Positions 1 through 41,193 of a stretch of DNA of 64,000 nt are shown piece by piece. The notes beneath the pieces are model-generated. The model made no database searches and was not told the DNA's origin. It saw nothing but the letters and a program-made list of their open reading frames with translations. Each line of letters opens with the position of its first letter. Within the stretch, counting starts at the first letter, position 1. A program made the position numbers and the translations under genes. The DNA is from Candidatus Omnitrophota bacterium (GTDB lineage: Bacteria > Omnitrophota > Gorgyraeia > Pluralincolimonadales > Pluralincolimonadaceae): the NCBI GenBank assembly GCA_041651455.1, contig JBAZJG010000001.1, positions 146,535-210,534 on the forward strand, given 5' to 3'.

Positions 1-46
1 CATAGTAAAGTTTTCCGGGTTATTCCTGATACCGGTCATAACCTGG

Positions 47-3467: not shown

Positions 3468-3468
3468 G

Positions 3469-4368: not shown

Positions 4369-5263
4369 TTTGCCCCTATTCACGGTGGTCATCTCGACCT
4401 ATAACAGGAAGCACGTCCTGCCGCGCGCGATATCGAGCGTGCTGGGGCAGACGTGCGGGGATTTCGAGCTCATAGTGATAGACAATGGCTCCACGGACGG
4501 CACGGAGGCCGCCGTCAGCGCGATAAAAGACCCGAGGATAAAATACATCAGGAACCCAGAACCGACCTCATCCTGCGACGGGCCGCGCAACATGGGCATA
4601 GAAATGGCCAAAGGAAGCTACATCGCGTTCCTCGATGACGATGACATCTGGTATCCGCAGCGCCTCGAGAAAGTAAAAGAAGCGTTCGATAGCGACCCGG
4701 GAGTATCCGCCGTATGCCACAACGAGAACAGGAATTACAAGGGCAAAGTCGACAAGGTACTCGAGTACGGGCCTTGGTCCGATGATATATATGAGCGGTT
4801 GCTTTATGATGGCAACTGCCTCTCGTCCTGCGCGACGACCGTGAAGAAGGGTGTGTTCGACAGGTTGGGAGGTTTTGACCTGAGGCAGGAATACGCAGCT
4901 GCGGCGGACTACGATTTCTGGCTTCGGATGACGGGCAACGGAGCGAAGGTATGTTTCATTAAGGAACCCCTCGGCGAGTTTGGCTATACGGGTAAGAATT
5001 GGAGCTCGGCGGATCCAGCTTTCCAATCAAGGATAGCGGCGTTAATAAGGGACCATATCGTCAATCATGAGAACAAACCGGTAAGCGGCATATCAGATAA
5101 GGGTATGCTGCGGCTGATCAAATTGTACATCATAGCATCGAAGTCTTTTTTATCGGCATTCAGGATAACAGATGCGCTCAAATACCTGATGATGGCATCG
5201 CAGCTCACCGTTAAAAGACCTCATCTGATCGTAAAATTGCCGTCAGGGGGCGGGAGAAAATGA
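4358..5263 (+). CDS. Glycosyltransferase family 2
   Basis: VVISTYNRKHVL...LIVIDNGSTDGT...FLDDDDIWYP. GT-A fold with DxD. Confidence 0.7.
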   Translation: MGDNLPLFTVVISTYNRKHVLPRAISSVLGQTCGDFELIVIDNGSTDGTEAAVSAIKDPRIKYIRNPEPTSSCDGPRNMGIEMAKGSYIAFLDDDDIWYPQRLEKVKEAFDSDPGVSAVCHNENRNYKGKVDKVLEYGPWSDDIYERLLYDGNCLSSCATTVKKGVFDRLGGFDLRQEYAAAADYDFWLRMTGNGAKVCFIKEPLGEFGYTGKNWSSADPAFQSRIAALIRDHIVNHENKPVSGISDKGMLRLIKLYIIASKSFLSAFRITDALKYLMMASQLTVKRPHLIVKLPSGGGRK

Positions 5264-6408
5264 AGAAACGCATGGCTATCGCTATAATATCGTGCTGCGC
5301 AGTTATAGCGGTTGTTTTCCCGTTTGCGATGCTTGCAAACAAGTATACTGCATATTTCGCCTACAAGGAAATAACCTATAAGACTATGGCCGATAGTATA
5401 GCCGGCGGGCCGGGTGGGCCCGAAGAAGAAGCGACTCGCATCAGCAGTTATCTTCACCGGCACTTGTTCACGCCTTTCGGGGCTCAGGCTGTAGATAAAG
5501 ACACCTATAACGATATCATCAGGGGAATAGCCTATTGTGACCAGAAAGCCTGGGGGATGTCCGCTTTTCTCGCGAAACGTGGTATAGACAGCAGGATGGT
5601 GATGACGGTAAATCCCGACGGCCAGTCTAACCATACCATTTTGGAGGTCGATATAGAGGAAGGATGGAGATATTATGATCCTCAGTACTCCCTTGTTATA
5701 CGCGGGAAGGACGATGAGCTTGCGTCATACAGTGATATATGCAGGGAACCGTCGCTACTGGTCAATTCTCACAGGATGCGCCTGCTGAAGAAGGCTTGCC
5801 CTGCGGAGTACGGGATTATTAGCAAGTACCTGGAAAAGAACGTGTTCAATCCGGGAATCATAAAACCGATAGTATGGAACAGCTCCGCCAAAAGCAAGGG
5901 AGGCGCAGCACGCGTTTTGTCGCGAGTATTAGATGTTTATGTCACGATCTTCGGTAGTAAATTTTCCCGCCTCTACCAGGATGCATATCTGGGCGTATAT
6001 TCCGGAAAGGGCGGCCATAATGCCGATTATCTGCTCGCGAGAAATTACGATATCTATGGAAGATATGATAAAGCGGTTCATTATTACAGGAAGTTCATCA
6101 GGAATTCTTCTTCAGATGACGAAAGGTATCCCGCTATGTTGTTCCTTTCGATCGTATATACAAAAAAAGGGGATTATAAAGCCGCGATTGACACCCTCAA
6201 GGCTATGATAGAGGAGACGGGGTCATCGAAATGGGCGTCGTCCATATATTATTGGCTCGGTTATAATTATGAGGCCCGGAATGAAGCGGAAAAAGCCGCT
6301 GATTGTTACAGAATCTCCATCAGGGAACACGTGAAGTCGGGGAACCCTTCTGACGCGATAAAACTGCTCGAACTGGATTCATTCGAAAGGCTTGCGGAAT
6401 TGGAATGA
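5260..6408 (+). CDS. Membrane-anchored transglutaminase-like (papain-like Cys-His-Asp) domain protein with C-terminal TPR repeats
   Basis: N-terminal TM helix. GIAYCDQKAWGMSAFLAKRGI...SNHTILEV...YYDPQY is the transglutaminase-like core. The C-terminus is TPR-like (YYRKFI..., YNYEARNEAEKAADCY). Confidence 0.55.
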   Translation: MKKRMAIAIISCCAVIAVVFPFAMLANKYTAYFAYKEITYKTMADSIAGGPGGPEEEATRISSYLHRHLFTPFGAQAVDKDTYNDIIRGIAYCDQKAWGMSAFLAKRGIDSRMVMTVNPDGQSNHTILEVDIEEGWRYYDPQYSLVIRGKDDELASYSDICREPSLLVNSHRMRLLKKACPAEYGIISKYLEKNVFNPGIIKPIVWNSSAKSKGGAARVLSRVLDVYVTIFGSKFSRLYQDAYLGVYSGKGGHNADYLLARNYDIYGRYDKAVHYYRKFIRNSSSDDERYPAMLFLSIVYTKKGDYKAAIDTLKAMIEETGSSKWASSIYYWLGYNYEARNEAEKAADCYRISIREHVKSGNPSDAIKLLELDSFERLAELE

Positions 6409-8234
6409 AGATAAAACCGTTTATCGTATCTTCAATTATATACGCATCGGCCTCGCTATTATTGCTTGTTAATGTGGCGGCTGGAGAAGGATTATACGAG
6501 AGCTGGGACACGGCCAGGTATATAGCCATATATTTGCTTATCTCGATACTGTATTTTACGAAGATAAGGTATTCTCGCGGGGTAAATATCGCAGAAGGAA
6601 TTATATCTTCCGTAATATTCAGCCTGGGAGCGATGCTTATAAGGATGAACGGCGTATTGCTGGACCTGTCATCTCCGATGAAGATACAGAAGGTATATTT
6701 CCTGGTCATGCTGTTCTCATTCATATGCTTAGTGTATGTTTTATCAATGAAAAATGCAGCTGCCGCGATTCGGCGGGCGCGCGGACACGGCTTCTACCTG
6801 ACGTTCCATTATATAGCGCTTATCCCGTATGCCATATATGAGTTGTGCGTGCAGGGAGGGTTTCGCGGTTGTATTGTATTGGGCGCCGCGCTAGGTATTT
6901 CGGTGGCGACTATATATTTATTGCGTATCAGGCGCATTCGCGAAGCGATAAAAGGGATGGCTTATTACCTTTGGGATGCAAAACGGTTTCTTGTGATCGT
7001 ATTTATATTCGCTATTGCGGCCAGGGTCATGTTCGCGTTCCAGCTCACAAGGAACCTTCCGGAGGGCTTTATGGAAGGCCCGGACACGCAGGAGATCCAC
7101 GATGAATCCGTCGAGTTGTCGAGGAACTGGGATATACTAGACGGCAAGCCGGTCTTCCTTAACCAGAAGGGTTCCGCGATAATATTCTACGCCGTTATAT
7201 ATAAGGTATTCGGCGCGGACCCTCTCTATGGCCGGCTCGCGGATGCGCTCCTCAACGCGCTATGCGTTCTGATGGCGTTCTATATCGCGGATAAACTGTT
7301 CGGGCGCGCCGCCGCAAGGATAGCCGCGCTGCTCGGGGCAGGCTACGGATACCTGATACAGTACGGGGTGTATATTGGGACGGAATCGATCGGGCTCTTT
7401 TCGCTGATGCTGTTCGTGTGCGGGATCATAGCGGCGGGGGAGTCAGGAGGGATATCCTGCGGGATATCCTGCGGGATAAGGTCGCATGCGCTCGCGGCGG
7501 TATCGGGGCTTGGCCTTGCAATATGCGTAATGGCCAGGTCGGAGTATTATTATGCGATAGTGCCTTCGCTCATATGGGCCGCCTGGTCGTTAAGGAGGCA
7601 AAAAGCTGCCATAGCGTCGTTCATAGTGAGCTTCGGAGTACTGGCGGCCTTATGGTCATGGAGGAACATGATTGCGTTCGGCGATTTTACCATCTCGCAA
7701 CTGCTGAGCCCCGCGTTCAAGGATGAATGGATGGGGCAGCTCTGGCAGTTCGAGAAAGGCAGGTTCGCGGAGGCTGGCATAGCGGTAACAGGCGTGGGGA
7801 GTATGTTCGCGCAGCTGCTCCTGCATCCGGAGGCCGCGTTCGGAATATTGATGCCGCACATCGCAAAAGGATTCTATAACTTCTGGGATTACAACGTATT
7901 CTTCACGCCGGCATTTATATTCCTTGAGCCGAAGAACTCCTGTTATAATATGACGCTGTGTTTGTACCTGTACATGTTCATGCTGCTCGGGATGCTGATC
8001 AGGCCATGCAGGAGGGGGGCGTCTCTTTTTCTCGCGTTCATCATAATCTTCAAGACGGTAAGCTACATATTCACTACTACGCCGACGTTTTATGAGAACG
8101 GCGCCGTCACGGCGCTATTCAAGGACTGGTACCGTTTCACGATAATCCCGTTCACTCATGTGTTCATGGGGGCCGGGATAGCGTGGCTGATATCAAGGGC
8201 GCGTGACGCAAAAACAGGGAAGGCAAAAGCATGA
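6405..8234 (+). CDS. Polytopic membrane protein. The C-terminal ~400 aa are GT-C-like (ArnT/PMT_2 layout). There is an extra ~200-aa N-terminal membrane domain.
   Basis: Periplasmic-loop acidic motif (GPDTQEIHDESVEL) followed by YAVIYKVFGADPLYGRLADALLNALCVLMAFYIADKLFG, as in GT39/GT83. Many TM helices. ATGA overlap with the upstream gene. Confidence 0.5.
   Translation: MKIKPFIVSSIIYASASLLLLVNVAAGEGLYESWDTARYIAIYLLISILYFTKIRYSRGVNIAEGIISSVIFSLGAMLIRMNGVLLDLSSPMKIQKVYFLVMLFSFICLVYVLSMKNAAAAIRRARGHGFYLTFHYIALIPYAIYELCVQGGFRGCIVLGAALGISVATIYLLRIRRIREAIKGMAYYLWDAKRFLVIVFIFAIAARVMFAFQLTRNLPEGFMEGPDTQEIHDESVELSRNWDILDGKPVFLNQKGSAIIFYAVIYKVFGADPLYGRLADALLNALCVLMAFYIADKLFGRAAARIAALLGAGYGYLIQYGVYIGTESIGLFSLMLFVCGIIAAGESGGISCGISCGIRSHALAAVSGLGLAICVMARSEYYYAIVPSLIWAAWSLRRQKAAIASFIVSFGVLAALWSWRNMIAFGDFTISQLLSPAFKDEWMGQLWQFEKGRFAEAGIAVTGVGSMFAQLLLHPEAAFGILMPHIAKGFYNFWDYNVFFTPAFIFLEPKNSCYNMTLCLYLYMFMLLGMLIRPCRRGASLFLAFIIIFKTVSYIFTTTPTFYENGAVTALFKDWYRFTIIPFTHVFMGAGIAWLISRARDAKTGKAKA
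7449..7478 (+). repeat. Perfect tandem 12-nt repeat (GGGATATCCTGC x2.5) inside the CDS, encoding GISCGISCGI
   Basis: Seen directly in the sequence at 7449-7478. Confidence 0.9.
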
Positions 8235-9190
8235 TAAAAGGCAGCAGAGTATTCCTGACGGGCGGGGCGGGGTTCATCGGTTCAGCACTGATAGGTCGGC
8301 TTATCGAAAACAACAAGGTCACCGTATATGATAACCTGCACCGGGACGCGCTCAAGCATACGGGTCTCGCCGAACACCCGAACCTGAAGTTCGTTCACGG
8401 GGACGTGCTCGACGCGGCGAGCGTCGAGAGGAGCATCGGTGATTCGGATATCATAGTCCACCTCGCGGCTATCGCCGGGGTCGATACCGTGCTTTCGATG
8501 CCGGTCAGGACGATGGAGGTGGCGCTGATAGGCTCGTATAACATGCTGAAGGCATGCGCCGGCCGCAAGGGGATAAAGAGGTTCATAGATTTCTCTACGA
8601 GCGAGGTATACGGCGCGGTCGCGAGGGACGTCAAGGAAAGCGATGCGACCCCGGTCGGCGCCGTAGGCGAGCCGAGATGGACGTACGCGGTAAGCAAGCT
8701 TGCCGCCGAGCATCTTGCGTTCAGCTATTACATGCAGCAGAAGCTGCCCGCCGTATCCATAAGGCCCTTTAACATATTCGGGCCTATGCAGGTGGGCGTT
8801 GGCGCTATACATATATTCATCAAGAAGGCGTTGAGGGGGGAGCCGATAACGCTCAATAACGGCGGCGGACAGGTAAGGTCGTGGTGCTATATTGACGACA
8901 TTGCGGACGCTGTCCTTCTTTGTATGGAGAAGGAAGCCGCCGTCGGGCAGGCGTTCAATATAGGCAACCCGCAGAACACCGTCACGATAAAGGAACTCGC
9001 GGAGATGGTAAAGAAGGTTACCGGGTCTGCGAGCGGCATAGTGCCGGTCAACAACGACCGCGCCGAGGTCGAAGTAAGGATACCCGATATAGAAAAAGCG
9101 AAGAAACTCCTGGGTTTCATGCCTAAGGTCGGGCTCGAGGAAGGCTTGTCCAGGACCGTCGACTGGTACAGAAAAGAACAGAAGGGGTGA
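8231..9190 (+). CDS. NAD-dependent epimerase/dehydratase (extended SDR)
   Basis: [27 protein letters not shown] motifs. Confidence 0.65.
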
Positions 9191-9194
9191 AGCG

Positions 9195-9713
9195 ATGAAA
9201 AGACCGGAATCCCACGGAAGCGGCGCATGCAAACGCTCGCAATTCGCGAAGATAGGCAAAGGAGTAGTGATCGAGAAAGGGGCGCTATTCTTCCATCCCG
9301 AGAATATCGAGATAGGGGATAACGTATATGTCGGGCATTACGCGATAATCAAGGGTTACTACAGGAACAGGATGAAGATAGGAAGCGGGACGTGGATAGG
9401 CCAGCAGGCGTTCCTGCACAGCGCTGGCGGCATCACGATCGGCAAAGGCGTGGGGATCGGACCGCATGTCCAGGTCCTGACATCGTCGCACGGAACCGGC
9501 GGCGCCGGGATCCCGGTAATGCGCAATAAGCTGGAATTCGAGCCTGTCATAATAGAGGACGGTTCGGATATCGGCACCGGGGCGGTCATACTGCCGGGAG
9601 TCAGGATCGGCAAGAACGCGATAATAGGCGCGGGAGCGGTGGTCACGAAGGATATCCCGGCATCATCGATCGCCGTCGGGAACCCGGCAAAGGTAATAAA
9701 GAAAAGGAAATGA
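9195..9713 (+). CDS. Hexapeptide-repeat (left-handed beta-helix) sugar O-/N-acetyltransferase
   Basis: Repeated [LIV]G hexapeptides: [47 protein letters not shown]. Confidence 0.7.
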
Positions 9714-10396
9714 AACCCGTCATCTCGGCCATAGTGATGGCATACAACGAGGCGGCGAGCATAGATGACACATGCCGCGAGATACACGGAGAATTATCCC
9801 GCATCGGAGACCCGTTCGAGCTCCTTATCATAGACGACGGCAGCACCGACGGGACGTCCGCGAAGGCCGACGCTATAGCTGTTTCACTGCCGTACTGCAG
9901 GGTCGTGCACCATGCGGTAAATTCGGGGCTCGGGGGCGTATACAGGACGGGCTTCTCGGCTGCAGCAGGTAATTATGTTACGTTCTTCCCGGCCGACGGG
10001 CAATTCCCCGCGGATATAATAGGGAAGTTCAGGCCCATGATGGCCGAATATGACATGGTACTCGGATACCTCCCGGAGAGGAAAGGGCAGGCGTTCGCGA
10101 AATTCCTGTCGAAGGCGGAGAGGTGCCTCTACGCCGCGCTGTTCGGAAAATTGCCGGTATTTCAGGGGGTAATGATGTTCAGGAGGGAACTGCCGGGTAT
10201 GTTCAGGCTGAAGTCATCCGGCAGGGGCTGGGCGGTCGTCATGGAGCTCATAATAAGGGTATCCCGCGCGGGTTTCAGGATAACGAGCGTCCCTACCGGA
10301 TACCGGCCGCGGAAAAGCGGCTCATCGAAGGTAAATAACCCGAGGAATATTATCGCAAACCTTCTCCAGGTCATCGTGCTAAGGTTCAATATATAA
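9710..10396 (+). CDS. GT2 polyprenyl-phosphate glycosyltransferase (DPM1-like, soluble)
   Basis: [11 protein letters not shown]...[12 protein letters not shown]. Short 228-aa DPM1-like architecture. Confidence 0.6.
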
Positions 10397-10397
10397 C

Positions 10398-11933
10398 ATG
10401 AAAAGGACCGTAGCCATAGCGCTGCTGTTGCTGATAAACCTTACGGCGCATTTCATGCCGTTCGAAAGGGCTGCGCTTGCTCCGGATGATTACGCGACGC
10501 TCGTAAGGTCGCTTCCGGCAGCGGAAGGCGGGGCCTCTCCCGTAAAGGCGTATGCCGACAGGCCCCTGAATTACGCGTTTTTGGCCTTTCAGGCAAAAAA
10601 CATAGGCGACAATGCCGGGCTTGCGTTCATCCTGCTGTTCCTGTCCGCCTGCGCGCTCCTGCTTGCCGTATTTATGCTGCTCGAAAGGATATTCGGGGAT
10701 ACAGCTGCGGCTTTCATAGGGGCGGCTGTATTCTGCCTGCTGCCGAACAAGCTTGAGACGTACCATACGCTTATATTCCTTAACATAAATCTCGTATCGC
10801 TTATATACGTCGTGAGTTTCGCGTTATTCATCGCACATGCCGGCACGGGCAGGAGGGGCGTCCTTCTTGCATCAGTGCTGTTGTACGCCGCGGGGATATT
10901 CTGGTACGAAGTGGGATTTTTCATGCCTTTGCTGATGTTATCCTATTGTTTCCTGGACAAGAGATGCAGGCCGGTATCGGTAATGCCTTTCATGGCGGCG
11001 GCGTTGTTTTATGCGGTCTACAGGTTCACGGGGGCTTACGGCATGGCCGCCGGGGCGGAAGGGCAGTCCCATTCCGTCTCATTGACTATGCTGCCGCTCA
11101 ACCTCAAGGAACTGTTCCATCATTATGCCGGCAGGTATGCGGCCCGCAGCGTATTATACGGTTTCTATAATTTCGCGGCTATGCAGACCGTATGGCTTGT
11201 CGCCGTATCGGCGGCGCTGATTGCGCTCATCGTTTCGGTGAGGTCCGCAGTCGCGGGCACTGGAACGCCGGAAATAAAAAAGGGCGTCCTGATGTTCGGG
11301 CTGGCAGCGTTCTTAACCATGATGCTGCCGATATTGTTCAATGACAAGGGAGGGATAGGCGGAAGGCACTTGATTCTTCCGTCGATAGGCGTGTCCATAA
11401 TGGCGGTGCCGGCGCTGATGTATGCGGGCAGGATGTGGAAACACATACTGATAGCGTTCATAGCGGTAATGTCGATCGTGGGAGCGGGGAATGCCTGGAC
11501 GCAGGTGGTCGCCTGCCGGATAAACGGCGCGGTGTTCGGGTATTTTAAGTCGAACATCCCGGCGCTGAGATCCGCAAAGGCCGTGGTAATAGATACGAAC
11601 AGTTTTGCCGAGAAGATCAAGTATACGCTGGTGAAGAGGGATTTCAACCTCTTTAACACATATTACGGCGCGCAGGCTTTCGAGGATTGGGGGCTCATAA
11701 GCATGGTAAGGTGGGCGGCAAAAGACAGAGGGAAAGAAGTATACATATCCATAAGCTCGCCGTATACCAAAAAGGGTGAGGTCAAGTTCTGCGTTTACGA
11801 ATATAAGGGATACCGTTCAAAGGACGTAAAGGACATACGCCTGCCCGCCGATGGGACGTTCGTGGTAGGAGCTAAAGAGGTATTCGGAGGCGATACGGAT
11901 GCAGGCATCAGAAAGCTGGGCATAAGGCAATGA
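10398..11933 (+). CDS. Polytopic membrane protein, GT-C-like glycosyltransferase candidate
   Basis: First-loop APDDYATL acidic motif then ...IGDNAGLAFILLFLSACALLLAVFMLLERIFG. More than 10 hydrophobic helices. C-terminal soluble domain. Confidence 0.45.
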   Translation: MKRTVAIALLLLINLTAHFMPFERAALAPDDYATLVRSLPAAEGGASPVKAYADRPLNYAFLAFQAKNIGDNAGLAFILLFLSACALLLAVFMLLERIFGDTAAAFIGAAVFCLLPNKLETYHTLIFLNINLVSLIYVVSFALFIAHAGTGRRGVLLASVLLYAAGIFWYEVGFFMPLLMLSYCFLDKRCRPVSVMPFMAAALFYAVYRFTGAYGMAAGAEGQSHSVSLTMLPLNLKELFHHYAGRYAARSVLYGFYNFAAMQTVWLVAVSAALIALIVSVRSAVAGTGTPEIKKGVLMFGLAAFLTMMLPILFNDKGGIGGRHLILPSIGVSIMAVPALMYAGRMWKHILIAFIAVMSIVGAGNAWTQVVACRINGAVFGYFKSNIPALRSAKAVVIDTNSFAEKIKYTLVKRDFNLFNTYYGAQAFEDWGLISMVRWAAKDRGKEVYISISSPYTKKGEVKFCVYEYKGYRSKDVKDIRLPADGTFVVGAKEVFGGDTDAGIRKLGIRQ

Positions 11934-16151: not shown

Positions 16152-17278
16152 GGAAGATATCGTTACCGGCATATGAGGCCTCGCGCTGCCGCCTGTACGC
16201 GCTGGGCAGGAACGCGATGTATGCCGCGTGCAGGGCCTTCGGCCTGAAGGAGGGCGACGAAATATTGACGCCCGCATTCGATTGCGACGGGTCCCTGCAG
16301 CCGTTCAGGGCGCTCGGGCTGAAACTGAAGTTTTACCGCTCGGACCCGTACACCTTCGAGGCGGATACGGGCGATATGGAGAAAAGGATGGGACCGTCAA
16401 CAAGGATGGTCCACGTAATCAACCATTTCGGGATGCCCCAGCCGTGGGGCAGGATAAAGGGGATCTGCGGGGCCTTAAGGGTCCCTGTCATGGAGGACTG
16501 CGCATATTCGCTGTTCTCAGACGGATTCGGAACGAACGGCGACGCCGCGATATTCTCGCTGAGGAAGAACCTGCCGATGGTAGACGGCGGGATGCTCCGT
16601 ATGAACAACGGAAATTTCGCGCTGGGCCGTCAGGCAGAACGCGCGCCTCTGTTCTACAGGACGGAATCGGCAAATGTCCTGACATTGATCAAATCGGCCA
16701 TGGGATATTATAAGGCGCCCGAAGGGCTCAGGCGTATTCTAAGGAAGGCCAATCCCGCGGTGGAACCTCCTCCGCCTTTGTATTCGGAGAAGGAGAAAGG
16801 GTATCCCGAGTGGCCCCTGCGCGACCATACGGGGGAAGAGTTTAGCTGCGGCTATGAAAGGCCCATCTCCGCGCTGGCGAGGTTCCAGCTGGAAGGCCTG
16901 CCGGAAGGATATTATAAAAATGCCGCGGAGACGAAACGGCGTTATTATTCGGAGCTCGCCGGGAAGTTCGCCGGATTGAACGGGATACGGGTTCTCTGGC
17001 CGGAACTTCCGGAAGGCATAGTCCCTTTTTGCCTTTCCGTATTAATTAACCGGGACAGGGACCGCATTTTCGCGGAATTGAGGAAGAAATATGATGTGAT
17101 GGCCTGGCCGACGCTTTCGCGGGAAGTCATCGACCGGCTTGGCGAATACCCGGAAGTGGAGATCCTCGGCAGGAAGGTCCTGCAGTTCAACCTGTCGGCA
17201 GACAAGGTCATGAGGCGGGATTACCCGCAGTATATAGGCAGGCTCGCGGACGATTTTACCGCGTTAACGGTGAGATAG
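16148..17278 (+). CDS. DegT/DnrJ/EryC1-type PLP-dependent sugar aminotransferase-like protein with a shortened N-terminus
   Basis: GRNAMYAACRAFGLKEGDEILTPAFDCDGSL...LKLKFY matches the DegT GRSAL...GDEVI.P.FTF motif but begins at aa ~18. A possible catalytic Lys is in FSLRKNLP. TTG start (TTGA overlap). Confidence 0.5.
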   Translation: MRKISLPAYEASRCRLYALGRNAMYAACRAFGLKEGDEILTPAFDCDGSLQPFRALGLKLKFYRSDPYTFEADTGDMEKRMGPSTRMVHVINHFGMPQPWGRIKGICGALRVPVMEDCAYSLFSDGFGTNGDAAIFSLRKNLPMVDGGMLRMNNGNFALGRQAERAPLFYRTESANVLTLIKSAMGYYKAPEGLRRILRKANPAVEPPPPLYSEKEKGYPEWPLRDHTGEEFSCGYERPISALARFQLEGLPEGYYKNAAETKRRYYSELAGKFAGLNGIRVLWPELPEGIVPFCLSVLINRDRDRIFAELRKKYDVMAWPTLSREVIDRLGEYPEVEILGRKVLQFNLSADKVMRRDYPQYIGRLADDFTALTVR

Positions 17279-18379
17279 ATGGAATACCGCTGGATCGAGG
17301 ATATAGAGGATTTCAGGAAGATAGCGGGAGAATGGGACATGCTCGCCTCCAGCGGAGACTCGCACCCTTTCCTGCTTTCGGATTTCATAATAACGTGGTG
17401 GAAGTACTTCGGGAAAGGCAAGAAACTCAGGATATTCGTCGTCGAAGAGGGCGGTAAGGTCAAAGGAGGCCTGCCGTTATGCCTGAACAGGGGCGGCGCA
17501 AGGGAGGGTTTCGCGGATTTCCTCCATTACATAGGAGAGGTCGCCGCGAATTACACGGAGCCGCTTTATTCAAACGGGAAGCAGGAGATATTCCCGTTGC
17601 TGGCCCTAGCGCTTTCAGAGAGGAACGACTGGGATGTTTTTTGCCTGACCGATATCAGGGAAGGCAACCGGTTCCTGAAGGAGCTCAAAGGCGCAACGGG
17701 GCAGAAGGGTTGTTCGATATTCCTCATAAGCGACCATATGAACTACGCGATCGACCTTGGCAAGGGGCTTGAAAGCTACCTCTCGTCCTTATCTCCTAAA
17801 CTAAAGAGGGACCTGAGGTCGAAGCGAAAGCATCTCACGCAGAAATGCGGGGCGATAACGCTCGAAAGGGCCTCGGGCGAAAAGGAAGTAGGGGCAAGCG
17901 CCGCCCTTTACAAGGAGTTCTCAAGGGAAGCGTTCGCAGCGAGGAACAGGAAGAGCAATTTCGAGAACGACAAATACGCGGATTTCTTCGGGGAATTCCT
18001 CGTCCTGATGGAAAAGGCCGGCCGTCTGGACGCGCACCTGCTCAAGGCGGGAGATACCGTGCTTGCTATTAGCTTCGCGTACAGGTTCGGCAGGGGTTTC
18101 AACTGGGTCCTTACGGCGTTCGATTACAAATATAAATATTACAGGCCGGGATATATCCTCATAGAGGAATTATTGAAGGAGATATGCGACAGGGGCGAGA
18201 CATATTACAACTGGTACGGGCACGGGCGCTTTTACAAGGACCAGCTCTGCAACCTGCTTGAGCCCCTGTATAAGGTAATGATGGTAAGGAAGACGTTAAA
18301 AGGTTCGTCGTACCTGCTGTCGCAAAAAGCCAAGAAGGCGGTCAAGTACCTGAAAGGGCTGGTCGACGGTGCAAAATAA
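17279..18379 (+). CDS. GNAT-fold acyltransferase of the CelD/BcsL (FemAB-like, Acetyltransf_6) type
   Basis: 366 aa. The C-terminal core LTAFDYKYKYYRPGYILIEELLKEICDRGETYYNWYGHG is typical of this family. Confidence 0.5.
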   Translation: MEYRWIEDIEDFRKIAGEWDMLASSGDSHPFLLSDFIITWWKYFGKGKKLRIFVVEEGGKVKGGLPLCLNRGGAREGFADFLHYIGEVAANYTEPLYSNGKQEIFPLLALALSERNDWDVFCLTDIREGNRFLKELKGATGQKGCSIFLISDHMNYAIDLGKGLESYLSSLSPKLKRDLRSKRKHLTQKCGAITLERASGEKEVGASAALYKEFSREAFAARNRKSNFENDKYADFFGEFLVLMEKAGRLDAHLLKAGDTVLAISFAYRFGRGFNWVLTAFDYKYKYYRPGYILIEELLKEICDRGETYYNWYGHGRFYKDQLCNLLEPLYKVMMVRKTLKGSSYLLSQKAKKAVKYLKGLVDGAK

Positions 18380-19340
18380 CCCGGTACGCCGCCGCCTGCG
18401 CAGGGATTACCATGCGGTGAGGCGCGTCGTCACGCATGTAAAAAATGCGCTTACGGACCCTTCGCCGAAACTCATAGTCCTTACATACCACAGGATATTG
18501 CCTGACTCAGGGCACAATCCGCTTAATACGGCCGTGTCTGAGCGCACCTTCATAAGGCATGTCGAGGGCGTTGCAAGGAAAGCGGGCATAATATCGCTGT
18601 CGGACGCGGCCGAACAGTGCAGGACCGGCCGCATCAAGCGGGCCCTGCAGGCGGTAATAAGCTTTGACGACGGGTATTCGGATAATTACGGGACGGCCTT
18701 CCCGTTATTGAAACGCAAGGGCTTGCCGGCGGTATTCTCCGTTTCGACCGGTTATATCGGCGCAGGCCGCCCGCTGTGGGATTCCGACGTGATAATGAGG
18801 ATAATCCGCGGTAATATAGGCCGCATAGACGCCGGAGGTTTCACTGCCGCAAGAGGCATGCCGGAATCGGCGTGTTCTTTCGCGTTCAGGGTCTTTGATG
18901 AGCTGAAGTCGAAGGACTTCACGGTGATAGGGAAAGTCCTGGAATTCCTGGTGGAGAAGGACCCGGGATACAGCAACGAAGAAGGGCACTGCATGACGTG
19001 GGAGCAGGTAAAGGAACTGTCCGATGCCGGGATGGAGATAGGGTCGCACGCAGTGACCCACAGGTCCCTCGCGAGGATACCTTTCGCTGAAGCGGAGTTC
19101 GAGGTGAACGCAAGCAAGGCCGAGATAGAGAAGAGGACCGGAAGGCGTTGCGCCCATTTCGCGTTCCCATTCGGGAGCGCAAGGGATTATAACGCAGGAC
19201 TGATAGAATGCGTAAAGAAGGCCGGGTACGGGACCTGCCTGCTCAATATACACGGCTACAACAGGATGACCGATGGCGTTTTCGCGCTGAAGAGGGCTAT
19301 AATGGAAGAAGATACGGACGTGAGGTTCATACTTGGCTGA
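18369..19340 (+). CDS. Polysaccharide deacetylase (NodB/CE4 domain)
   Basis: ISFDDGYSDNY...PAVFSV NodB motifs 1-2. HAVTHRSL is the His motif. GTG start. Confidence 0.65.
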   Translation: MQNNPVRRRLRRDYHAVRRVVTHVKNALTDPSPKLIVLTYHRILPDSGHNPLNTAVSERTFIRHVEGVARKAGIISLSDAAEQCRTGRIKRALQAVISFDDGYSDNYGTAFPLLKRKGLPAVFSVSTGYIGAGRPLWDSDVIMRIIRGNIGRIDAGGFTAARGMPESACSFAFRVFDELKSKDFTVIGKVLEFLVEKDPGYSNEEGHCMTWEQVKELSDAGMEIGSHAVTHRSLARIPFAEAEFEVNASKAEIEKRTGRRCAHFAFPFGSARDYNAGLIECVKKAGYGTCLLNIHGYNRMTDGVFALKRAIMEEDTDVRFILG

Positions 19341-20403
19341 AAATATGATGCCGGAAGTGGATGTCATGATCCTGAGCTATCTCCATTACGGAAGGCTTCA
19401 GAAATGCGCCGATTCCGTATTGGCGTCCACCTACCCGAACCTGAAACTGGTCATTGCCGATAACGGATCGGGGCCGAATGTCATCGCTGCCGTAAAGGAG
19501 AGGTATTCAGGGAATCCGAAAGTGGCCATAATAGAGAACAGGGAAAACCTCGGTTACGCCGAAGGCAATAACGTCGCGTTAAGGGCGACCGAAGGCAAAT
19601 ACTGCGTGATCCTCAACAACGACGCGATAGTCGACCGTAACTGGCTCGAGCCGATGGTCGAATATCTCGACAGGAACGCGAAAGCCGGCGCATGCCAGCC
19701 GAAGATACTCGATATAAAGGACCCGCGCAGGTTCGAGCATTCCGGCGCCGCCGGAGGGTACCTGGACAGGTACGGCTATCCGTTCATGAGGGGGAGGCTG
19801 TTCGATACGCTCGAGAACGACGAGGGCCAGTATGACGACCACGCGTCGCTCGACTGGTGCTCCGGGACCGCGTTCATGGCCAGGCGCGAAGTGCTCGGCA
19901 AAGTAGGCCTTTTCGACCCGATATTTTTCATGTATGGCGAAGAGAACGACCTCTGCTGGAGGATAAAGCGCTGCGGATATGACATCGCATTCGTGCCGAG
20001 GTCCAAGGTCTATCACGAGGGCATGGGCTCTATAGGGAAACGCCCGCTTTTCAAGCTGCACCTTAACTACAGGAACAATATAATTCTGCTCATGAAAAAT
20101 CTCAGCATAGCCCAGCTGGCCGTAAGGCTTCCGGTAAGGATGGCGCTGGATGCCGTGAATATCCTGTATTTTATATTCAGTAAACCAATGAGTTTCAGGT
20201 TTGTCAGCATCATCTGGGCTTATTGTGAGCTTGCGATCATGCTGCCTCGCGTAATCAGCGCCAGAATACGCACGCAGCGCCTGTTCCGCGAGCTGGGCAG
20301 CGAAAGCGCCCCTCAATACCCGATGTACCGGATAAGCGTCGTATTCCAGTATTTCCTGATGGGCAGGAAAAAGTTCAGCCAGCTGAAATTAAGGAGAACG
20401 TAA
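19333..20403 (+). CDS. Glycosyltransferase family 2
   Basis: VMILSY...LKLVIADNGSG...ILNNDAIV. DxD region around DRYGYP. TTG at 19333. Alternative ATG at 19345. Confidence 0.7.
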   Translation: MAENMMPEVDVMILSYLHYGRLQKCADSVLASTYPNLKLVIADNGSGPNVIAAVKERYSGNPKVAIIENRENLGYAEGNNVALRATEGKYCVILNNDAIVDRNWLEPMVEYLDRNAKAGACQPKILDIKDPRRFEHSGAAGGYLDRYGYPFMRGRLFDTLENDEGQYDDHASLDWCSGTAFMARREVLGKVGLFDPIFFMYGEENDLCWRIKRCGYDIAFVPRSKVYHEGMGSIGKRPLFKLHLNYRNNIILLMKNLSIAQLAVRLPVRMALDAVNILYFIFSKPMSFRFVSIIWAYCELAIMLPRVISARIRTQRLFRELGSESAPQYPMYRISVVFQYFLMGRKKFSQLKLRRT

Positions 20404-20404
20404 T

Positions 20405-21343
20405 ATGAATACGGGCCTTTCTATCGTTGTCCCGACGTATAACGAGGAAGATTCCATCGTTAAGCTGCATTCAAGGATAAAGGAAGCCCTCCGAGGCAAG
20501 GTAAAATACGAGATCATATTTGTCGATGACGGTAGTACCGACGGGACATACGGGATCCTGGACAAGCTGAACCGCGAAGACCCGGACGTAAAGGCCGTAA
20601 AGCTCTCGAGGAATTTCGGGCATGAGATAGCGACGTCCGCAGGGCTCAGGTATGCATCGGGAGAGGCCGTAGTCGTGATGGACTCCGACCTGCAGCATCC
20701 TCCCGAGACGATAAATGAACTGCTGGAGAAAATGAAGGAAGGTTATGATATCGTCTTCGCGGTGAGGCGCAACAGGGAAGCCGGGTCCGCGCTTAAAAAA
20801 TTCTGCTCGAAGGCCTTCTACGGCGTATTGGGCAGGCTGTCGGAGGTCAAACTGCCGGATGACGTGACGGATTTCATGATACTTAACAGGAAGGCGGTCG
20901 ACGCGTTCCTTAAGCTCAGGGAAAAGAGCCGATTCTTCAGGGCTATGATCTCATGGATGGGCTTCAGGACGGCATTCGTGCCGTTCGAGGAAGGAAAGAG
21001 GAGCAGCGGCAGCTCGAAATACGGCCTGCGTAAGCTCGCGGGCCTCTCGGTTGACGTAGTGACGGGATATTCGATAAAACCGCTGGCGTTCGTTTCGTGG
21101 GCAGGGGCCATAATTTCGGCGGCAAGCTTCGCGCTGCTGCTTTTCTACTTGGTTAAGACGATATTCTACGGCGCGTCCATGCCGGGTTATGCGTCGATGA
21201 TGATAACTATATTGTTCATAGGCGGCATTCAACTGCTGTCTATCGGGATAATAGGACAGTATATCGGCAGGATATACAAGGAGACGCAGAAGAGGCCGTT
21301 ATACCTCGTCGGCAGCCTTATAGGACTGGAAGAAAAGGAATGA
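20405..21343 (+). CDS. GT2 polyprenyl-phosphate hexose synthase (GtrB/ArnC-like, with C-terminal TM helices)
   Basis: LSIVVPTYNEEDSI...[12 protein letters not shown]...KLSRNFGHEIATSAGL...VMDSDLQHPPE. Two C-terminal hydrophobic helices. Confidence 0.7.
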   Translation: MNTGLSIVVPTYNEEDSIVKLHSRIKEALRGKVKYEIIFVDDGSTDGTYGILDKLNREDPDVKAVKLSRNFGHEIATSAGLRYASGEAVVVMDSDLQHPPETINELLEKMKEGYDIVFAVRRNREAGSALKKFCSKAFYGVLGRLSEVKLPDDVTDFMILNRKAVDAFLKLREKSRFFRAMISWMGFRTAFVPFEEGKRSSGSSKYGLRKLAGLSVDVVTGYSIKPLAFVSWAGAIISAASFALLLFYLVKTIFYGASMPGYASMMITILFIGGIQLLSIGIIGQYIGRIYKETQKRPLYLVGSLIGLEEKE

Positions 21344-23055
21344 CGCGTAAGAAGGCCGCCCTGCTATTGGCCGTCGTGATGATGGCGGCATTCCACATCT
21401 CCGCGAGCATTGCGCAGATGTCCAACAAGTTCGACGACGAACCAGCCGCAGGGCCGTTCGGCGGGATACGCCTGCATTACCTGAATGTCCTTAACTTCGA
21501 TTTCTCGCACGGGGTGTCGGCGCAGGATGGCACGTCGCATATACTGGACAATTTCATCAAGTCGGCGGTCAGCGGAACGCACGGGCTCCTTGATTTTGCG
21601 CACTGGTACGCATACGCGGGCATATACGACATGCTCGGGATACCGGTGAACGAGTTCTGGCTTTTGTTCGCGCAGACCGTGGTGATGTTCTGCGGCCTCA
21701 TGTTGATGGCATACGCGGTATACAGGCTCTACGATGATGCAGTAGCGGCGCTGGTATTCCTGGCGATAACGTCCCAGGCGTATGTGCAGCACTCCATCAG
21801 TTTCTATATAATACCGGTGAATACGTTATATGAAGGCCTCTTGCTTCTCTCGATATATTTTTACGACTGGAAGGAGAAGGGGTTTGCGCGGAAAATCCCG
21901 CTGCTCGTGATGTTATTCATAAACTCGGCCTGCGGCAATGTGATAAAAATGCCGGTATACCTGTATTTCGCATGGGCCGCGGCGTATAAACGGGACAATT
22001 ACGGGCCGCTTGGCTCGGCCAGGGAATACTTCGTAAAGAATCCCGCGAACCTGACGCTTGCGGTCCCGGTCATTGCCGCGGCCGTCGCGCACCTCTATGT
22101 ATACAAGAGGATAGGAGAGAGCAACCTGGGGCTTTTGGGCTGGGTCTCGCAGAAGATAGGCATAGGAGCTCCGCTCGTATCGAAATTCGCAGCGATAGGA
22201 AGTTCGCTGAAGAGCATGTTGCTGTCAGGCATGTGGCAGTGGTGGGCGTTTGCAGCCCTTGCGGCATTTTACGCGATAGCCGTAATGCGGGGGAAGAAAC
22301 AAACACCGCTGCTGTTATTTCCCGTCGTATATTACCTGTATCTCATAAATCTTGAGCCGTATTCGGCGATGCTTCCCTACATGATTATTGCGTCTATAGC
22401 GATAGCGCAGGCCTTCAGGATGGCATCCGATAAAACACGGAATGCGGCCGCGAGGTATGCTTCGACAGCGGCAGTCGCGGTCTTTACGGCATACATACTT
22501 TCGGTTTCGGCATCTGCGAACGTGGCTTCCCTCGTTTCGCCGAGGCAACGGTCACCCAATTACCTGAAGAGCGTCGGTTATTACCTTAGGGAGCATATGA
22601 GCAAGGATGATAAGATCGCAAGCTTGCTCGACCAGAGGGAGAACATCCTGAACGAATATTATTACGGAAAGAACTTCTTCAAGAGCCCGGTATTCGGGAA
22701 ATATATCTATGACATGAGGAACATTTCGGAGCCGCCATCTTCAACGAACCCGGTGGCCGAAGGCGAGGCGGACATGGAATTCCCTTTTTATGTCGTATCT
22801 GCGTCGTGTTATAAAAAGGACGCGGGATATGCCTCATTTGTAGATAGGCTCGCAAAGAAATACTCTCTCAAGAAGGTCGCCGATATCGCCTCGGGCGGCA
22901 CCGTCTACGCGTCGGTGTATTCTTCGAGGCCTCTGCAATACGAGAGGTTAGAGGCCGAGAATGCCAATGGGAAATTTGATAGGAAATACGCAAATTTAAA
23001 GAAACTGTTCTACAACAGGCATGTCGGCGTAGCCTCGACCTGGGGGTTCTATTGA
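21340..23055 (+). CDS. Polytopic membrane protein, GT-C-like glycosyltransferase candidate (GtrC/ArnT-type partner of the upstream GtrB-like gene)
   Basis: KFDDEP first-loop acidic motif then ...AYAGIYDMLGIPVNEFWLLFAQTVVMFCGLMLMAYAVYRLY. More than 10 helices and a C-terminal soluble domain. ATGA overlap. Confidence 0.45.
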   Translation: MTRKKAALLLAVVMMAAFHISASIAQMSNKFDDEPAAGPFGGIRLHYLNVLNFDFSHGVSAQDGTSHILDNFIKSAVSGTHGLLDFAHWYAYAGIYDMLGIPVNEFWLLFAQTVVMFCGLMLMAYAVYRLYDDAVAALVFLAITSQAYVQHSISFYIIPVNTLYEGLLLLSIYFYDWKEKGFARKIPLLVMLFINSACGNVIKMPVYLYFAWAAAYKRDNYGPLGSAREYFVKNPANLTLAVPVIAAAVAHLYVYKRIGESNLGLLGWVSQKIGIGAPLVSKFAAIGSSLKSMLLSGMWQWWAFAALAAFYAIAVMRGKKQTPLLLFPVVYYLYLINLEPYSAMLPYMIIASIAIAQAFRMASDKTRNAAARYASTAAVAVFTAYILSVSASANVASLVSPRQRSPNYLKSVGYYLREHMSKDDKIASLLDQRENILNEYYYGKNFFKSPVFGKYIYDMRNISEPPSSTNPVAEGEADMEFPFYVVSASCYKKDAGYASFVDRLAKKYSLKKVADIASGGTVYASVYSSRPLQYERLEAENANGKFDRKYANLKKLFYNRHVGVASTWGFY

Positions 23056-27211: not shown

Positions 27212-27213
27212 CC

Positions 27214-29121: not shown

Positions 29122-29133
29122 GTGAGGGTAAAA

Positions 29134-30978: not shown

Positions 30979-30993
30979 AAAGGAGCGGGCAAA

Positions 30994-33085: not shown

Positions 33086-33089
33086 ATAA

Positions 33090-41192: not shown

Positions 41193-41193
41193 T

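Follow-up and report, generated by a model that had tools for sequence, protein, structure and literature searches.

The addition of sugars outside the cytoplasm by way of a lipid-phosphate-linked sugar and a GT-C glycosyltransferase is already known, and three-component glycosylation systems provide the precedent (PMC11127046). They include GtrA/GtrB/GtrC of Shigella and Salmonella phages, variants in Klebsiella and Citrobacter, and CsbB/GtcA/YfhO and CsdAB/CD/EF with CflA in Gram-positives (PMC11127046, PMC9574508). There is also precedent for GT-C components that are not conserved in sequence and for a common flippase whose gene lies at another locus: in L. lactis three synthase/GT-C pairs share one such flippase (PMC9574508).

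Here we describe an unusually elaborate version of this logic. The 64,000-nt stretch analysed (the window) starts at position 5861 of a 70-kb Omnitrophota metagenome contig and holds the variable part of a Candidatus Omnitrophota surface-glycan locus, most probably one for LPS O-chain and core. An array of 29 kb holds four lipid-phosphate-sugar synthases and five GT-Cs. An earlier note on this DNA had recognized three such synthases and four or five GT-C-like proteins, and had proposed that together they replace the usual assembly routes; the enzyme classes hold, with one synthase more and all five candidates GT-C, while the pathway drawn from them is not supported. We consider it probable that the glycan is built conventionally and tailored in the periplasm by synthase and GT-C modules. 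All genes located below lie on the + strand.

For the three GT2 genes named in the earlier note, the best matches are indeed solved GtrB, ArnC or DPMS structures. GT2c (20405..21343), an undecaprenyl-phosphate sugar synthase of the GtrB/ArnC type that carries a TM hairpin towards its C terminus (two helices, residues ~226-287), aligns over its full length with GtrB including both C-terminal helices (PDB, E 7e-92) and over its full length with ArnC (PDB, E 3e-50). Its NCBIfam scores are 281 bits for PgfS and 191 bits for ArnC. GT2a (9710..10396, 228 aa) is a DPM1/PpgS-like polyprenyl-phosphate sugar synthase candidate; its top PDB matches are DPMS 5MLZ and ArnC (residues 5-213, E about 5e-9), and it shares 31% identity with GT2c over 212 aa (pairwise BLAST). 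In GT2b (13255..14706; Pfam) the N-terminal half is a sugar-1-phosphate nucleotidyltransferase, fused to a DPMS/AglJ-like polyprenyl-phosphate sugar synthase (residues 244-473) that has DPMS as best PDB match (E 3.6e-13) and is also matched by AglJ and Dol-P-hexose transferase. On NCBIfam models the fusion protein scores 103 bits (AglF), 102 bits (AglJ) and 74 bits (Dol-P-hexose transferase). A GT2b start at 12973 is disfavoured, the 481-482 aa orthologues of relatives backing the start at 13255. GT2a and GT2b reach only E 1e-9 to 1e-13 against the solved synthases and have no TM helices; from their family and their adjacency to GT-Cs we infer that they use polyprenyl phosphate as acceptor. 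A fragment of the fourth GtrB/ArnC-type gene opens the contig, shortly before the window begins; it aligns with the TM hairpin of GtrB (E 5e-10), and its full-length orthologues precede the same epimerase-aminotransferase pair in three related loci (L006-L008).

The five polytopic candidates could all be assigned to GT-C, two by fold, two by PMT_2/GT39 family and one by weaker profile links. M2 (10398..11933, 511 aa, C-terminal periplasmic beta-rich domain) and M4 (21340..23055, 571 aa, C-terminal periplasmic alpha/beta domain) are the two that were modelled, and are GT-Cs according to high-scoring matches of their predicted folds. M0 (1..1237 in the window, ORF 47-1237) is cut by the window edge: the gene call on the contig (L001:5313-7097) starts 548 nt upstream, so that the window retains the C-terminal two thirds, 411 aa of a 594-aa PMT_2-type GT-C. 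PMT_2 is matched by 46 of 52 members of its family (best 2.9e-12; M0 itself 0.0088). M1 (6405..8234, 609 aa, GT39/PMT_2-like) carries an extra N-terminal 4-TM extension of ~190 aa; its homologues bear a GT39 annotation and a PMT_2 domain (PF13231), with P0113 scoring 28.0 bits against a cut-off of 26.1. M3 (11930..13273, 447 aa, without a large soluble domain) is a probable GT-C on sub-threshold profile evidence: its own PMT_2 match has E 7e-4, all four homologues compared match PMT_2 below threshold (best 4.7e-5), hhalign aligns the M3 and M1 families over 348 columns (73%, E 3e-5), and a distant homologue (L093) matches both the M3 and the M1 profile.

The acidic first-loop motif reported by the earlier note is borne out: in each of the five families invariant acidic residues come right behind the first TM helix (or its equivalent) and are preceded by Lys/Arg-rich cytoplasmic segments. 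In the M0 family D38 is invariant and E39 nearly so, in the M3 family D80, G83 and D84 are invariant, and the M1 family has an invariant L-P-x-G-x-M-x-G-P-D after a TM helix at ~residues 195-214. The five GT-Cs are barely detectable as one another's relatives.

PMT_2/PMT is the sole family link of these proteins, and Pmt4 and STT3/PglB are among the top fold matches, as would be expected of bacterial PMT-like protein O-glycosyltransferases acting on secreted or surface proteins independently of LPS. However, PMT_2 is a broad family that includes ArnT-like lipid/glycan transferases and whose members can glycosylate proteins or lipid A, and ArnT, Aft (AftA, AftB, AftD) and ALG enzymes score nearly as high as folds, with PimE also among the matches. 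O-oligosaccharyltransferases do occur among Wzy_C proteins such as the one encoded here, and streptococcal membrane proteins are reported to be glycosylated by GtrB-type synthase/GT-C systems (PMC12041528). Yet the genes sit among LPS-core genes (GT9 heptosyltransferases, a GmhB-like phosphatase) and the array has no obvious Ser/Thr-rich target protein. We regard protein O-glycosylation as unlikely.

Sugar-tailoring genes are interleaved with each synthase/GT-C module. A deoxy-sugar nucleotide module (1250..4368; Pfam; NCBIfam G1P_cyt_trans 281 bits, rmlD 159 bits) comprises a glucose-1-P cytidylyltransferase-like gene (1250-1966), an epimerase/dehydratase (1924-3021), an RmlC/FdtA-like cupin (3018-3467) and an RmlD-like reductase (3469-4368). 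It is followed by a GT2 (4358..5263; Pfam) of the conventional cytoplasmic and not the polyprenyl-phosphate type, which aligns at full length only with the GT2 at 23057 and with synthase-type GT2s only over its N-terminal ~100 aa, and by a signal-anchored transglutaminase-core and TPR protein (5260..6408; Pfam; one N-terminal TM) that is missing at this position in two relatives (L004, L005). Between M1 and GT2a lie an NDP-sugar 4,6-dehydratase/decarboxylase-like SDR (8231-9190) and a WcaF-like hexapeptide acetyltransferase (9195-9713; both Pfam, NCBIfam). An amino-sugar tailoring module (14703..19340; Pfam, NCBIfam) consists of a B12-radical SAM (14703-16151), a DegT-like aminotransferase (16148-17278), a FemAB/GNAT-like acyltransferase (17279-18379) and a polysaccharide deacetylase (18369-19340), with a conventional GT2 (19333..20403; Pfam, pairwise BLAST) behind it. 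These genes suggest that the module sugars are deoxy, amino, N-acylated or deacylated, and methylated.

Alternatively, the GT-Cs may act as in the Arn pathway and place cationic amino sugars on lipid A phosphates or core, altering surface charge. This is a sub-case of our preferred explanation in which the acceptor alone differs. We give it little credence, as an ArnA-type formyltransferase and ArnE/F genes were not found, none of the five GT-Cs matches the NCBIfam ArnT/GT83 models, and the extra methyltransferase, radical-SAM and FemAB-like genes indicate other sugars.

The arrangement of a synthase followed by a GT-C was found as adjacency and not as strict pairing, the genes being interleaved: GT2b is followed by the radical-SAM gene and not by a GT-C, and M1 has no synthase directly upstream. 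The gene order recurs in at least seven related contigs, among which modules have been gained or dropped. In 5 of 6 loci GT2a immediately precedes the M2 homologue, and the DegT-Fem-deacetylase genes lie directly 3' of M3 in three relatives (L088, L091, L092). Four or five synthase/GT-C pairs had been proposed, but pairs are not kept as pairs across relatives, where GT2b and GT2c are gained or lost while M1-M4 are retained. Some relatives have four GT-Cs and a single in-locus synthase, and several GT-Cs are probably served by one synthase.

Downstream of M4, the array turns to cytoplasmic glycan assembly (23057..34055; Pfam: GT2, GT4, RmlD, GT1, asparagine synthase-like amidotransferase, GT1-DUF218, DUF4330, GT4, epimerase). 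A WecA/MraY-type initiating phospho-sugar transferase (34059..35849; Pfam; residues 366-589 score 107 bits on NCBIfam wecA and 88 bits on EPS_sugtrans) is fused to a WbaP-N-terminal-like TM and CoA_binding_3 region. The polytopic protein at 35846..37324 (Pfam Wzy_C 88 bits; NCBIfam IctB 85 bits, RfaL 37 bits) has no PDB sequence match; with two GT9 heptosyltransferases directly 3', it is most likely a WaaL-type O-antigen ligase, and it may instead be a polymerase or O-oligosaccharyltransferase. The LPS-core-type genes (37321..44419; Pfam) comprise these two heptosyltransferases, four more glycosyltransferases, a GmhB-like HAD phosphatase and an MGDG-synthase-like GT28. A co-directional array of an initiator, ~12 cytoplasmic GT-A/GT-B glycosyltransferases, two heptosyltransferases and a Wzy_C/WaaL-type protein is the signature of an Und-PP glycan made in the cytoplasm and flipped by a protein encoded elsewhere. 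This makes conventional assembly the most likely origin of the backbone, to which the GT-Cs would add tailored sugars in the periplasm.

These same genes counter the pathway of the earlier note, in which GT-Cs extend the glycan stepwise at the periplasmic face from lipid-linked monosaccharides in place of a Wzx/Wzy or ABC route. Such a pathway would accord with the presence of four synthases and five GT-Cs in 29 kb and with the lack of Wzx, Wzz and ABC exporters in the contig and in relatives' loci, and mycobacterial arabinan is polymerised by GT-Cs from polyprenyl-P-monosaccharides (PMC11127046). However, the PNPT initiator, the cytoplasmic glycosyltransferases and the Wzy_C/WaaL-type protein all act on Und-PP-linked glycans, and each module has genes to tailor its own, different rare sugar, which suits the decoration of side chains more than a repeating polymer. 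Flippase genes outside the glycan locus are on record (PMC9574508), and the visible genome amounts to only ~70 kb. Stepwise extension is thus an improbable reading.

The reported lack of a flippase, Wzz or ABC exporter in the array extends to the whole 70-kb contig, where we found no Wzx, GtrA, SMR, MATE, Wzz or ABC glycan exporter, and to the syntenic relatives, apart from one small EamA/SMR-like ORF in one of them. No array ORF matches Pfam flippase or exporter families, and no frame holds an unassigned polytopic ORF. The claim that Wzx and Wzy are both missing stands for Wzx, with the Wzy_C-family gene as a caveat for Wzy. With no known flippase type in the contig, flipping would depend on a gene outside it; by analogy with lactococci, a missing in-locus flippase is not diagnostic.

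It is conceivable that a GtrB-type product is elongated in the cytoplasm by adjacent GT2/GT4 enzymes, flipped, and then transferred or polymerised en bloc by the GT-Cs, as in Lactococcus Wps (WpsA/B-WpsC-F-WpsG-WpsJ/WpsI; PMC9574508). Conventional glycosyltransferases (19333-20403, 23057-24001, 23977-25233) do flank GT2c and M4. But this Und-P-oligosaccharide route requires a Wzx-type flippase, in-cluster in lactococci and not found here, and GacJ/WpsB-type small activator genes are also missing, leaving it a slim prospect.

The analysis shows the enzyme classes, the GT-C folds, the conserved motifs and a gene order that is kept in relatives. For conventional assembly with periplasmic tailoring, we infer donors, flipping step, acceptor and a role of the GT-Cs as decorators, not builders of the backbone, as follows. 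In each module cytoplasmic enzymes would produce an unusual nucleotide sugar, and one of the four GtrB/ArnC/DPM1-class GT2s would load this single sugar onto undecaprenyl phosphate. A flippase encoded outside the contig would flip the lipid-linked monosaccharide, and one of the five divergent GT-Cs, its acidic first loop periplasmic, would pass the sugar to the acceptor. The latter would most likely be the Und-PP glycan made by the WecA-like initiator and the ~12 cytoplasmic glycosyltransferases, which the Wzy_C/WaaL-type enzyme would finally ligate.

The array shares with three-component systems a GtrB-class GT2 that loads undecaprenyl phosphate with one sugar, a GT-C, divergent in sequence and acidic in its outer loop, that transfers this sugar outside the cytoplasm, the adjacency of synthase and GT-C genes, and a flippase that may be shared and encoded elsewhere (PMC11127046, PMC9574508). 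It differs in that 29 kb hold four synthases and five GT-Cs where those systems have one pair, in the lack of a flippase gene from the contig, in two TM-less DPM1-like synthases, of which one is a fusion with a nucleotidyltransferase, in separate sugar-tailoring genes for each module, and in a host from an uncultured phylum. With the Arn pathway (ArnB, ArnC, ArnA, ArnD, ArnT, ArnE/F), which adds Ara4N to lipid A, it has in common an aminotransferase, an SDR, an ArnC-type synthase, a PF01522 deacylase and a GT-C, whereas it lacks the formyltransferase domain and ArnE/F, its GT-Cs are not GT83/ArnT by sequence, and it adds methyltransferases, B12-radical-SAM and FemAB-like enzymes.

The mycobacterial arabinogalactan/LAM machinery (DPA or PPM donors; Emb, Aft, PimE; PpgS/Rv3779) likewise clusters many GT-Cs with polyprenyl-phosphate sugar synthesis; GT2a and GT2b are similar to its PpgS/Ppm1-type synthase, which has no TM helices either, and its AftA, AftB, AftD and PimE recur among the fold matches. 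In contrast, the array has no UbiA-type DPPR synthase or DprE1/E2 and belongs to a diderm with LPS-type genes, in which the GT-Cs would decorate rather than polymerise. In Rhizobium leguminosarum, the dodecaprenyl-P-GalA synthase RgtE feeds four ArnT-like GT-Cs, RgtA/B/C/D, on LPS core and lipid A. There too several GT-Cs depend on fewer synthases and decorate LPS in the periplasm, a logic that fits the relatives with four GT-Cs and a single in-locus synthase. The Rgt proteins are mutually similar ArnT-like paralogues that use one donor, while kinship among the five GT-Cs of the array is barely detectable and several donors are implied.

The window spans positions 5861-69860 of a 69,985-bp metagenome contig (ENA ERZ27247363, k141_3025038), and proteins that equal its own, or nearly so, carry the annotation Candidatus Omnitrophota. 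The first ~47 kb of the window form a single glycan-biosynthesis array. All genes but one lie on the + strand, most of them overlapping or abutting, and GC skew is positive throughout the window. Pfam scans covered all + strand ORFs between 47 and 63931, plus the single minus-strand gene, which encodes a TPR protein. Housekeeping genes (def, fmt, gap, pgk, tpi and an Opp peptide importer) follow after PriA (45086).

Nucleotide-sugar tailoring genes interleave with every group of polyprenyl-phosphate-sugar synthase and GT-C membrane protein. An upstream module lies before the window (L001:1-5316, on the contig that holds the window). It opens with a GtrB-type synthase that the contig start truncates, continues with an SDR, a DegT aminotransferase (369 bits), a pair of SAM methyltransferases and a B12-radical SAM enzyme, and leads to the membrane protein M0. 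The module leading to M1 (6405-8234) consists of CDP-glucose-type deoxy-sugar genes, including a G1P cytidylyltransferase (281 bits), a conventional GT2 and a transglutaminase-TPR protein. M2 (10398-11933) and M3 (11930-13273) share a module with a dehydratase/decarboxylase-like SDR, an acetyltransferase and the synthase GT2a (9710-10396), while M4 (21340-23055) is preceded by the synthase GT2b (13255-14706), a B12-radical SAM enzyme, a DegT-like protein, a FemAB/GNAT-like acyltransferase, a PF01522 deacetylase, a GT2 and the synthase GT2c (20405-21343).

Several features of this arrangement deserve mention in their own right. The two B12-binding radical-SAM enzymes inside sugar modules (14703-16151, which scores 211 bits against HpnJ, far under the cut-off, and L001:3847-5316, with Pfam matches only) suggest C-methylation or rearrangement of sugars. 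The signal-anchored protein with a transglutaminase core and TPR (5260-6408) sits between the GT2 and M1 and is missing from that position in the related loci L004 and L005. A fusion of a GT1 domain with DUF218 (29122-30978) is followed by a single-TM DUF4330 protein (30994-31485); the sole large gap between genes of the array (31486-31891) comes directly after it and may be an operon boundary. An Rfam scan of the window gave no match. Beyond the array, two GalT/HIT-like (DUF4921) genes stand in tandem (50608-52641) between a CBS-domain protein and gap-pgk-tpi.

The earlier note had proposed three synthases of DPM1/GtrB/ArnC architecture together with GT-C-like polytopic transferases, and both halves of this machinery were borne out: GT2a, GT2b and GT2c match GtrB/ArnC/DPMS, and M0 to M4 are GT-C by fold or profile, M3 more weakly than the others. 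PF00535 (Glycos_transf_2) scores 75 bits for the gene at 9710, 74 bits for the C-terminal half of the one at 13255 and 124 bits for the one at 20405. GT2c aligns with solved GtrB over its full length, C-terminal TM hairpin included (E 7e-92), and with ArnC (E 3e-50), matches PgfS (281 bits) and ArnC (191 bits) in NCBIfam, and has its hairpin at about 226-287 by hydropathy and GtrB alignment. GT2a (228 aa, no TM) aligns over residues 5-213 with DPMS 25-233 and ArnC 10-217, the solved proteins closest to it, at about E 5e-9. For the GT2 half of GT2b the best matches are DPMS, whose residues 16-248 align with its residues 244-473 (E 3.6e-13), AglJ (102 bits) and a haloarchaeal Dol-P-hexose transferase. 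Both GT2a and GT2b are without the C-terminal TM hairpin and resemble the TM-less DPM1/PpgS subtype. The three proteins align mutually over ~210 aa, compared with only ~100-150 aa, the nucleotide-binding half, for the remaining GT2s of the locus. Judged by sequence, GT2c is a textbook GtrB/ArnC enzyme with strong evidence, and GT2a and GT2b are candidate polyprenyl-phosphate synthases with moderate evidence.

The N-terminal half of GT2b is an RmlA/AglF-like sugar-1-phosphate nucleotidyltransferase. Because its orthologues are 481-482 aa long, the start at 13255 that the earlier note had chosen is favoured over a longer ORF from 12973. The fusion (13255-14706) is conserved in relatives, with lengths of 481-483 aa, and would couple sugar activation straight to lipid loading. 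We know of no characterised example of a nucleotidyltransferase fused to a DPMS/AglJ-like synthase.

A fourth synthase of the GtrB/ArnC type lies at the contig start, upstream of the window. The contig begins inside this ORF (L001:1-303), whose last 100 residues align with GtrB hairpin residues 244-331 (E 5e-10) and also with ArnC. A full-length GtrB-type gene precedes the same epimerase-aminotransferase pair in three further Omnitrophota genomes. When genomes were searched with the upstream epimerase, most matches belonged to unrelated phyla, and these three were the useful Omnitrophota loci, none of the same species. Several large polytopic proteins are found near the trio there.

Searched directly against Pfam and NCBIfam, the five membrane proteins showed either no match or sub-threshold PMT_2 only, so family-wide scans and structure prediction were needed. 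All five are polytopic, in the range of ~8-13 or more TM helices found in GT-Cs (hydropathy scan and AF2 secondary structure). The ORF at 47-1237, listed earlier as a possible GT-C, proved to be the C-terminal part of M0, a 594-aa protein cut by the window edge and starting 548 nt upstream of it. An exhaustive search with the window part of M0 yielded a family of ~90 representatives, and 46 of the 52 aligned members match Pfam PMT_2 (best 2.9e-12). Homologues of M1 are annotated as "glycosyltransferase family 39" and contain PMT_2. For M3, all four first homologues show the same sub-threshold PMT_2 match (best 4.7e-5), a nine-sequence profile aligns with the M1 family's GT-C core over 348 columns (hhalign 73%, E 3e-5) and with the M0 family's PMT_2 core at 39%, and a distant homologue (L093) matches both the M3 and M1 HMMs. 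M2 and M4 have fold matches to GT-C in structure comparison, and M0, M1 and M3 are supported by profile. Among the five, M3 is the weakest assignment as a putative GT-C. As to the PMT- and ArnT-type enzymes with which the earlier note compared them, PMT_2/GT39 links exist for M0 and M1 and, below threshold, for M3, and none of the five matches NCBIfam ArnT.

The alternative that M0 to M4 are transporters or Wzx/Wzy proteins was rejected on the fold matches of M2 and M4 and the PMT_2 links of M0, M1 and M3; a transporter identity is also countered by zero matches to transporter or MOP families. Taking the five as GT-Cs, we infer from the fold and from their adjacency to synthases that they use a lipid-phosphate-linked sugar donor. 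Profile searches of PDB sequences with all five family alignments gave no match. By hhalign and HMM cross-comparison the only detectable paralogies are M1 with M3 (the 73% match) and M0 with M4 (63%, E 2e-5), every other pair being undetectable. The five GT-Cs are barely detectable as mutual relatives and therefore represent deeply divergent lineages, not recent duplicates.

Two further conserved elements were observed in these proteins. M1 carries a four-TM N-terminal extension (residues 1-190, 6405-7000) ahead of its GT-C core, with an invariant S-W-D-T-x-R-Y motif after the first helix; the N-terminal 200 aa have no Pfam match. A motif N(I/V)LN(E/T)YY(Y)G is conserved in the periplasmic C-terminal domains of both M2 (residues ~415-430, 11600-11800) and M4 (residues ~435-447, 22640-22700), which are otherwise unrelated families.

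Each of the five families has conserved acidic residues directly following a TM helix, with a Lys/Arg-rich segment ahead of that helix. They fall within FNADEGG in M0 (D38 invariant, E39 nearly invariant), LPxGFMEGPD in M1 (D227 invariant, E224 nearly invariant), FERAALAPDDY in M2 (E23 and D30 invariant), LDIFGDAQDN in M3 (D80 and D84 invariant) and FDDEP in M4 (E34 invariant). In the M2 and M4 models, the conserved acidic residues are located between TM1 and the short loop helices before TM2. This is the site that catalytic carboxylates of GT-C enzymes occupy in the structures of PglB, ArnT and Pmt. By the positive-inside rule the acidic loops are predicted to face the periplasm; of the first-periplasmic-loop motif proposed earlier, the position after a TM helix with basic residues before it is seen directly, and the side of the membrane comes from that rule.

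The absence of any flippase, Wzz or ABC exporter from the array, as first noted from the sequence, was confirmed. Among the ORFs of the 64-kb window there is no Pfam match to Wzx/MOP, GtrA, SMR, MATE, Wzz or ABC-2, and a six-frame hydropathy scan found no unassigned polytopic ORF in any frame of the window. The sole antisense polytopic candidate of that scan (25481-25858) was judged spurious. The same exporter families are absent among the called genes of the 5.9 kb upstream (precomputed Pfam table), and a Wzx/Wzy pair just upstream of the window, which would have spoken against the earlier proposal, is likewise not found in this visible stretch. Over the whole contig, no flippase (GtrA, SMR/EamA, MATE or Wzx) is encoded alongside synthase and GT-C. 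The RmlC/FdtA-like cupin at 3018-3467 matches Polysacc_synt_C at 38.3 bits, over the Pfam threshold of 28.7 bits, which the orthologues of the cupin in L001 and L004 also exceed; this match is probably a model artefact and not a flippase fragment. The syntenic loci of relatives contain no exporter or flippase except for one small ORF (L005:3892-4278), which encodes 128 aa with 4 TM between the M1 homologue and an SDR, matches EamA (E 0.0011) and SMR (E 0.031) weakly and may be an ArnE/F-like flippase subunit. By tblastn, nothing in the window corresponds to it. The missing flippase gives concrete form to a question of long standing, namely by what means Und-P-monosaccharides cross the membrane.

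The earlier note further held that the locus works in place of a Wzx/Wzy or ABC route. This part is not supported, as the array holds an initiator, cytoplasmic glycosyltransferases and a Wzy_C protein. Additional GT2, GT4 and GT1 enzymes are encoded at 23-34 kb, followed by a WecA/MraY-type initiating transferase (34059-35849), a Wzy_C-family protein (35846-37324), two GT9 heptosyltransferases, a GmhB-like phosphatase and several more glycosyltransferases. The initiating transferase is itself a fusion of WecA/MraY-type residues 5-326 with a WbaP/WcaJ N-terminal TM and CoA_binding_3-like region (residues 366-589), without the catalytic Bac_transf domain of WbaP/WcaJ. Parts of a Wzx/Wzy pathway in the 70-kb contig amount to the initiator at 34059 and the one Wzy_C-family protein at 35846, Wzx and Wzz not being found. 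The latter protein, which has no PDB sequence match, could be WaaL or Wzy; because heptosyltransferases adjoin it, a ligase is the likeliest reading. The genes at 23-34 kb and from 34 kb onward act on Und-PP-linked glycans and LPS core, which argues that the backbone is conventionally assembled and that its flipping has to depend on a gene beyond the contig.

Comparison with relatives reveals a common order, M1 ... GT2a-M2-M3 ... DegT-Fem-deacetylase-GT2 ... M4-GT2-GT4-RmlD-GT1-AsnB, within which GT2a directly precedes M2 in five of six loci. GT2b and its radical-SAM gene are missing from L005/L087, L088 and L091, and GT2c is missing from L002 and L087; the L087 genome retains four GT-Cs with GT2a as sole in-locus synthase. 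M0 and M3 alone are present on a 1.87-Mb contig (L092). This gain and loss of modules is therefore that of a modular, recombining toolkit. Speaking of synthase/GT-C "pairs", as the earlier note did, is accordingly too strict, since relatives lose GT2b or GT2c yet keep their GT-Cs, and one synthase probably feeds several GT-Cs. In GCA_043798215.1, the cluster has a DNA methyltransferase and an rve transposase directly in front of it (L003:110-3529) and ends at the defence genes GmrSD and another methyltransferase (L002:18562-21734), an island-like, hypervariable context.

Taken together, these results lead us to favour, with some confidence, a function in which rare sugars are added in the periplasm at multiple sites of an LPS-type glycan. 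A more radical hypothesis, which we regard as improbable, is that a substantial part of the surface glycan is built on the periplasmic face without a canonical flippase. It would join four tailored Und-P-monosaccharides, five unrelated-looking GT-C lineages, a novel translocator and a GT2b that channels sugar-1-phosphate to the lipid carrier, a combination that strikes us as a long shot; in that case the translocator would be, for example, the M1 4-TM extension (invariant SWDTxRY) or the GT-Cs themselves.

In this locus the synthase/GT-C logic is multiplied and joined to dedicated sugar-tailoring genes. It comes from a phylum, Omnitrophota, that to our knowledge is without cultured members and without described glycan chemistry. 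The locus provides five GT-C lineages without sequence-level relatives among solved structures and a new fused nucleotidyltransferase-synthase architecture, and its natural variants in module gain and loss are a resource for working out synthase-to-GT-C specificity. Many "hypothetical membrane proteins" in candidate-phylum glycan loci are GT-Cs visible only by fold-level comparison.

Extracytoplasmic glycosylation by a synthase/GT-C pair is known as a one-sugar add-on. Three-component systems combine a synthase of polyprenyl-phosphate sugars with a flippase (GtrA, SMR or MATE) and a GT-C to glycosylate O antigens after polymerisation (PMC11127046). Whereas Gtr systems encode the flippase with the synthase and GT-C, this contig has none. 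In L. lactis, one flippase at another locus serves three synthase/GT-C pairs, and the GT-C components of Gram-positive rhamnopolysaccharide systems are not conserved in sequence (PMC9574508). The array also resembles the Arn pathway in its logic of aminotransferase, acyltransferase, ArnC-type synthase, deacylase and GT-C, with ArnB-, ArnC- and ArnD-like components present. Unlike Arn, it has no formyltransferase (ArnA), the sole formyltransferase being fmt at 48295, no GT83 ArnT by NCBIfam and no ArnE/F. Searches of the literature turned up no account of arrays of this kind in Omnitrophota. The mechanism class of synthase, flippase and GT-C is already established; what is new here is a flippase-free arrangement in cis, TM-less synthases, one of them nucleotidyltransferase-fused, the dedicated tailoring genes, the 4-TM extension on M1, and the multiplicity of four synthases and five GT-C lineages within 29 kb.
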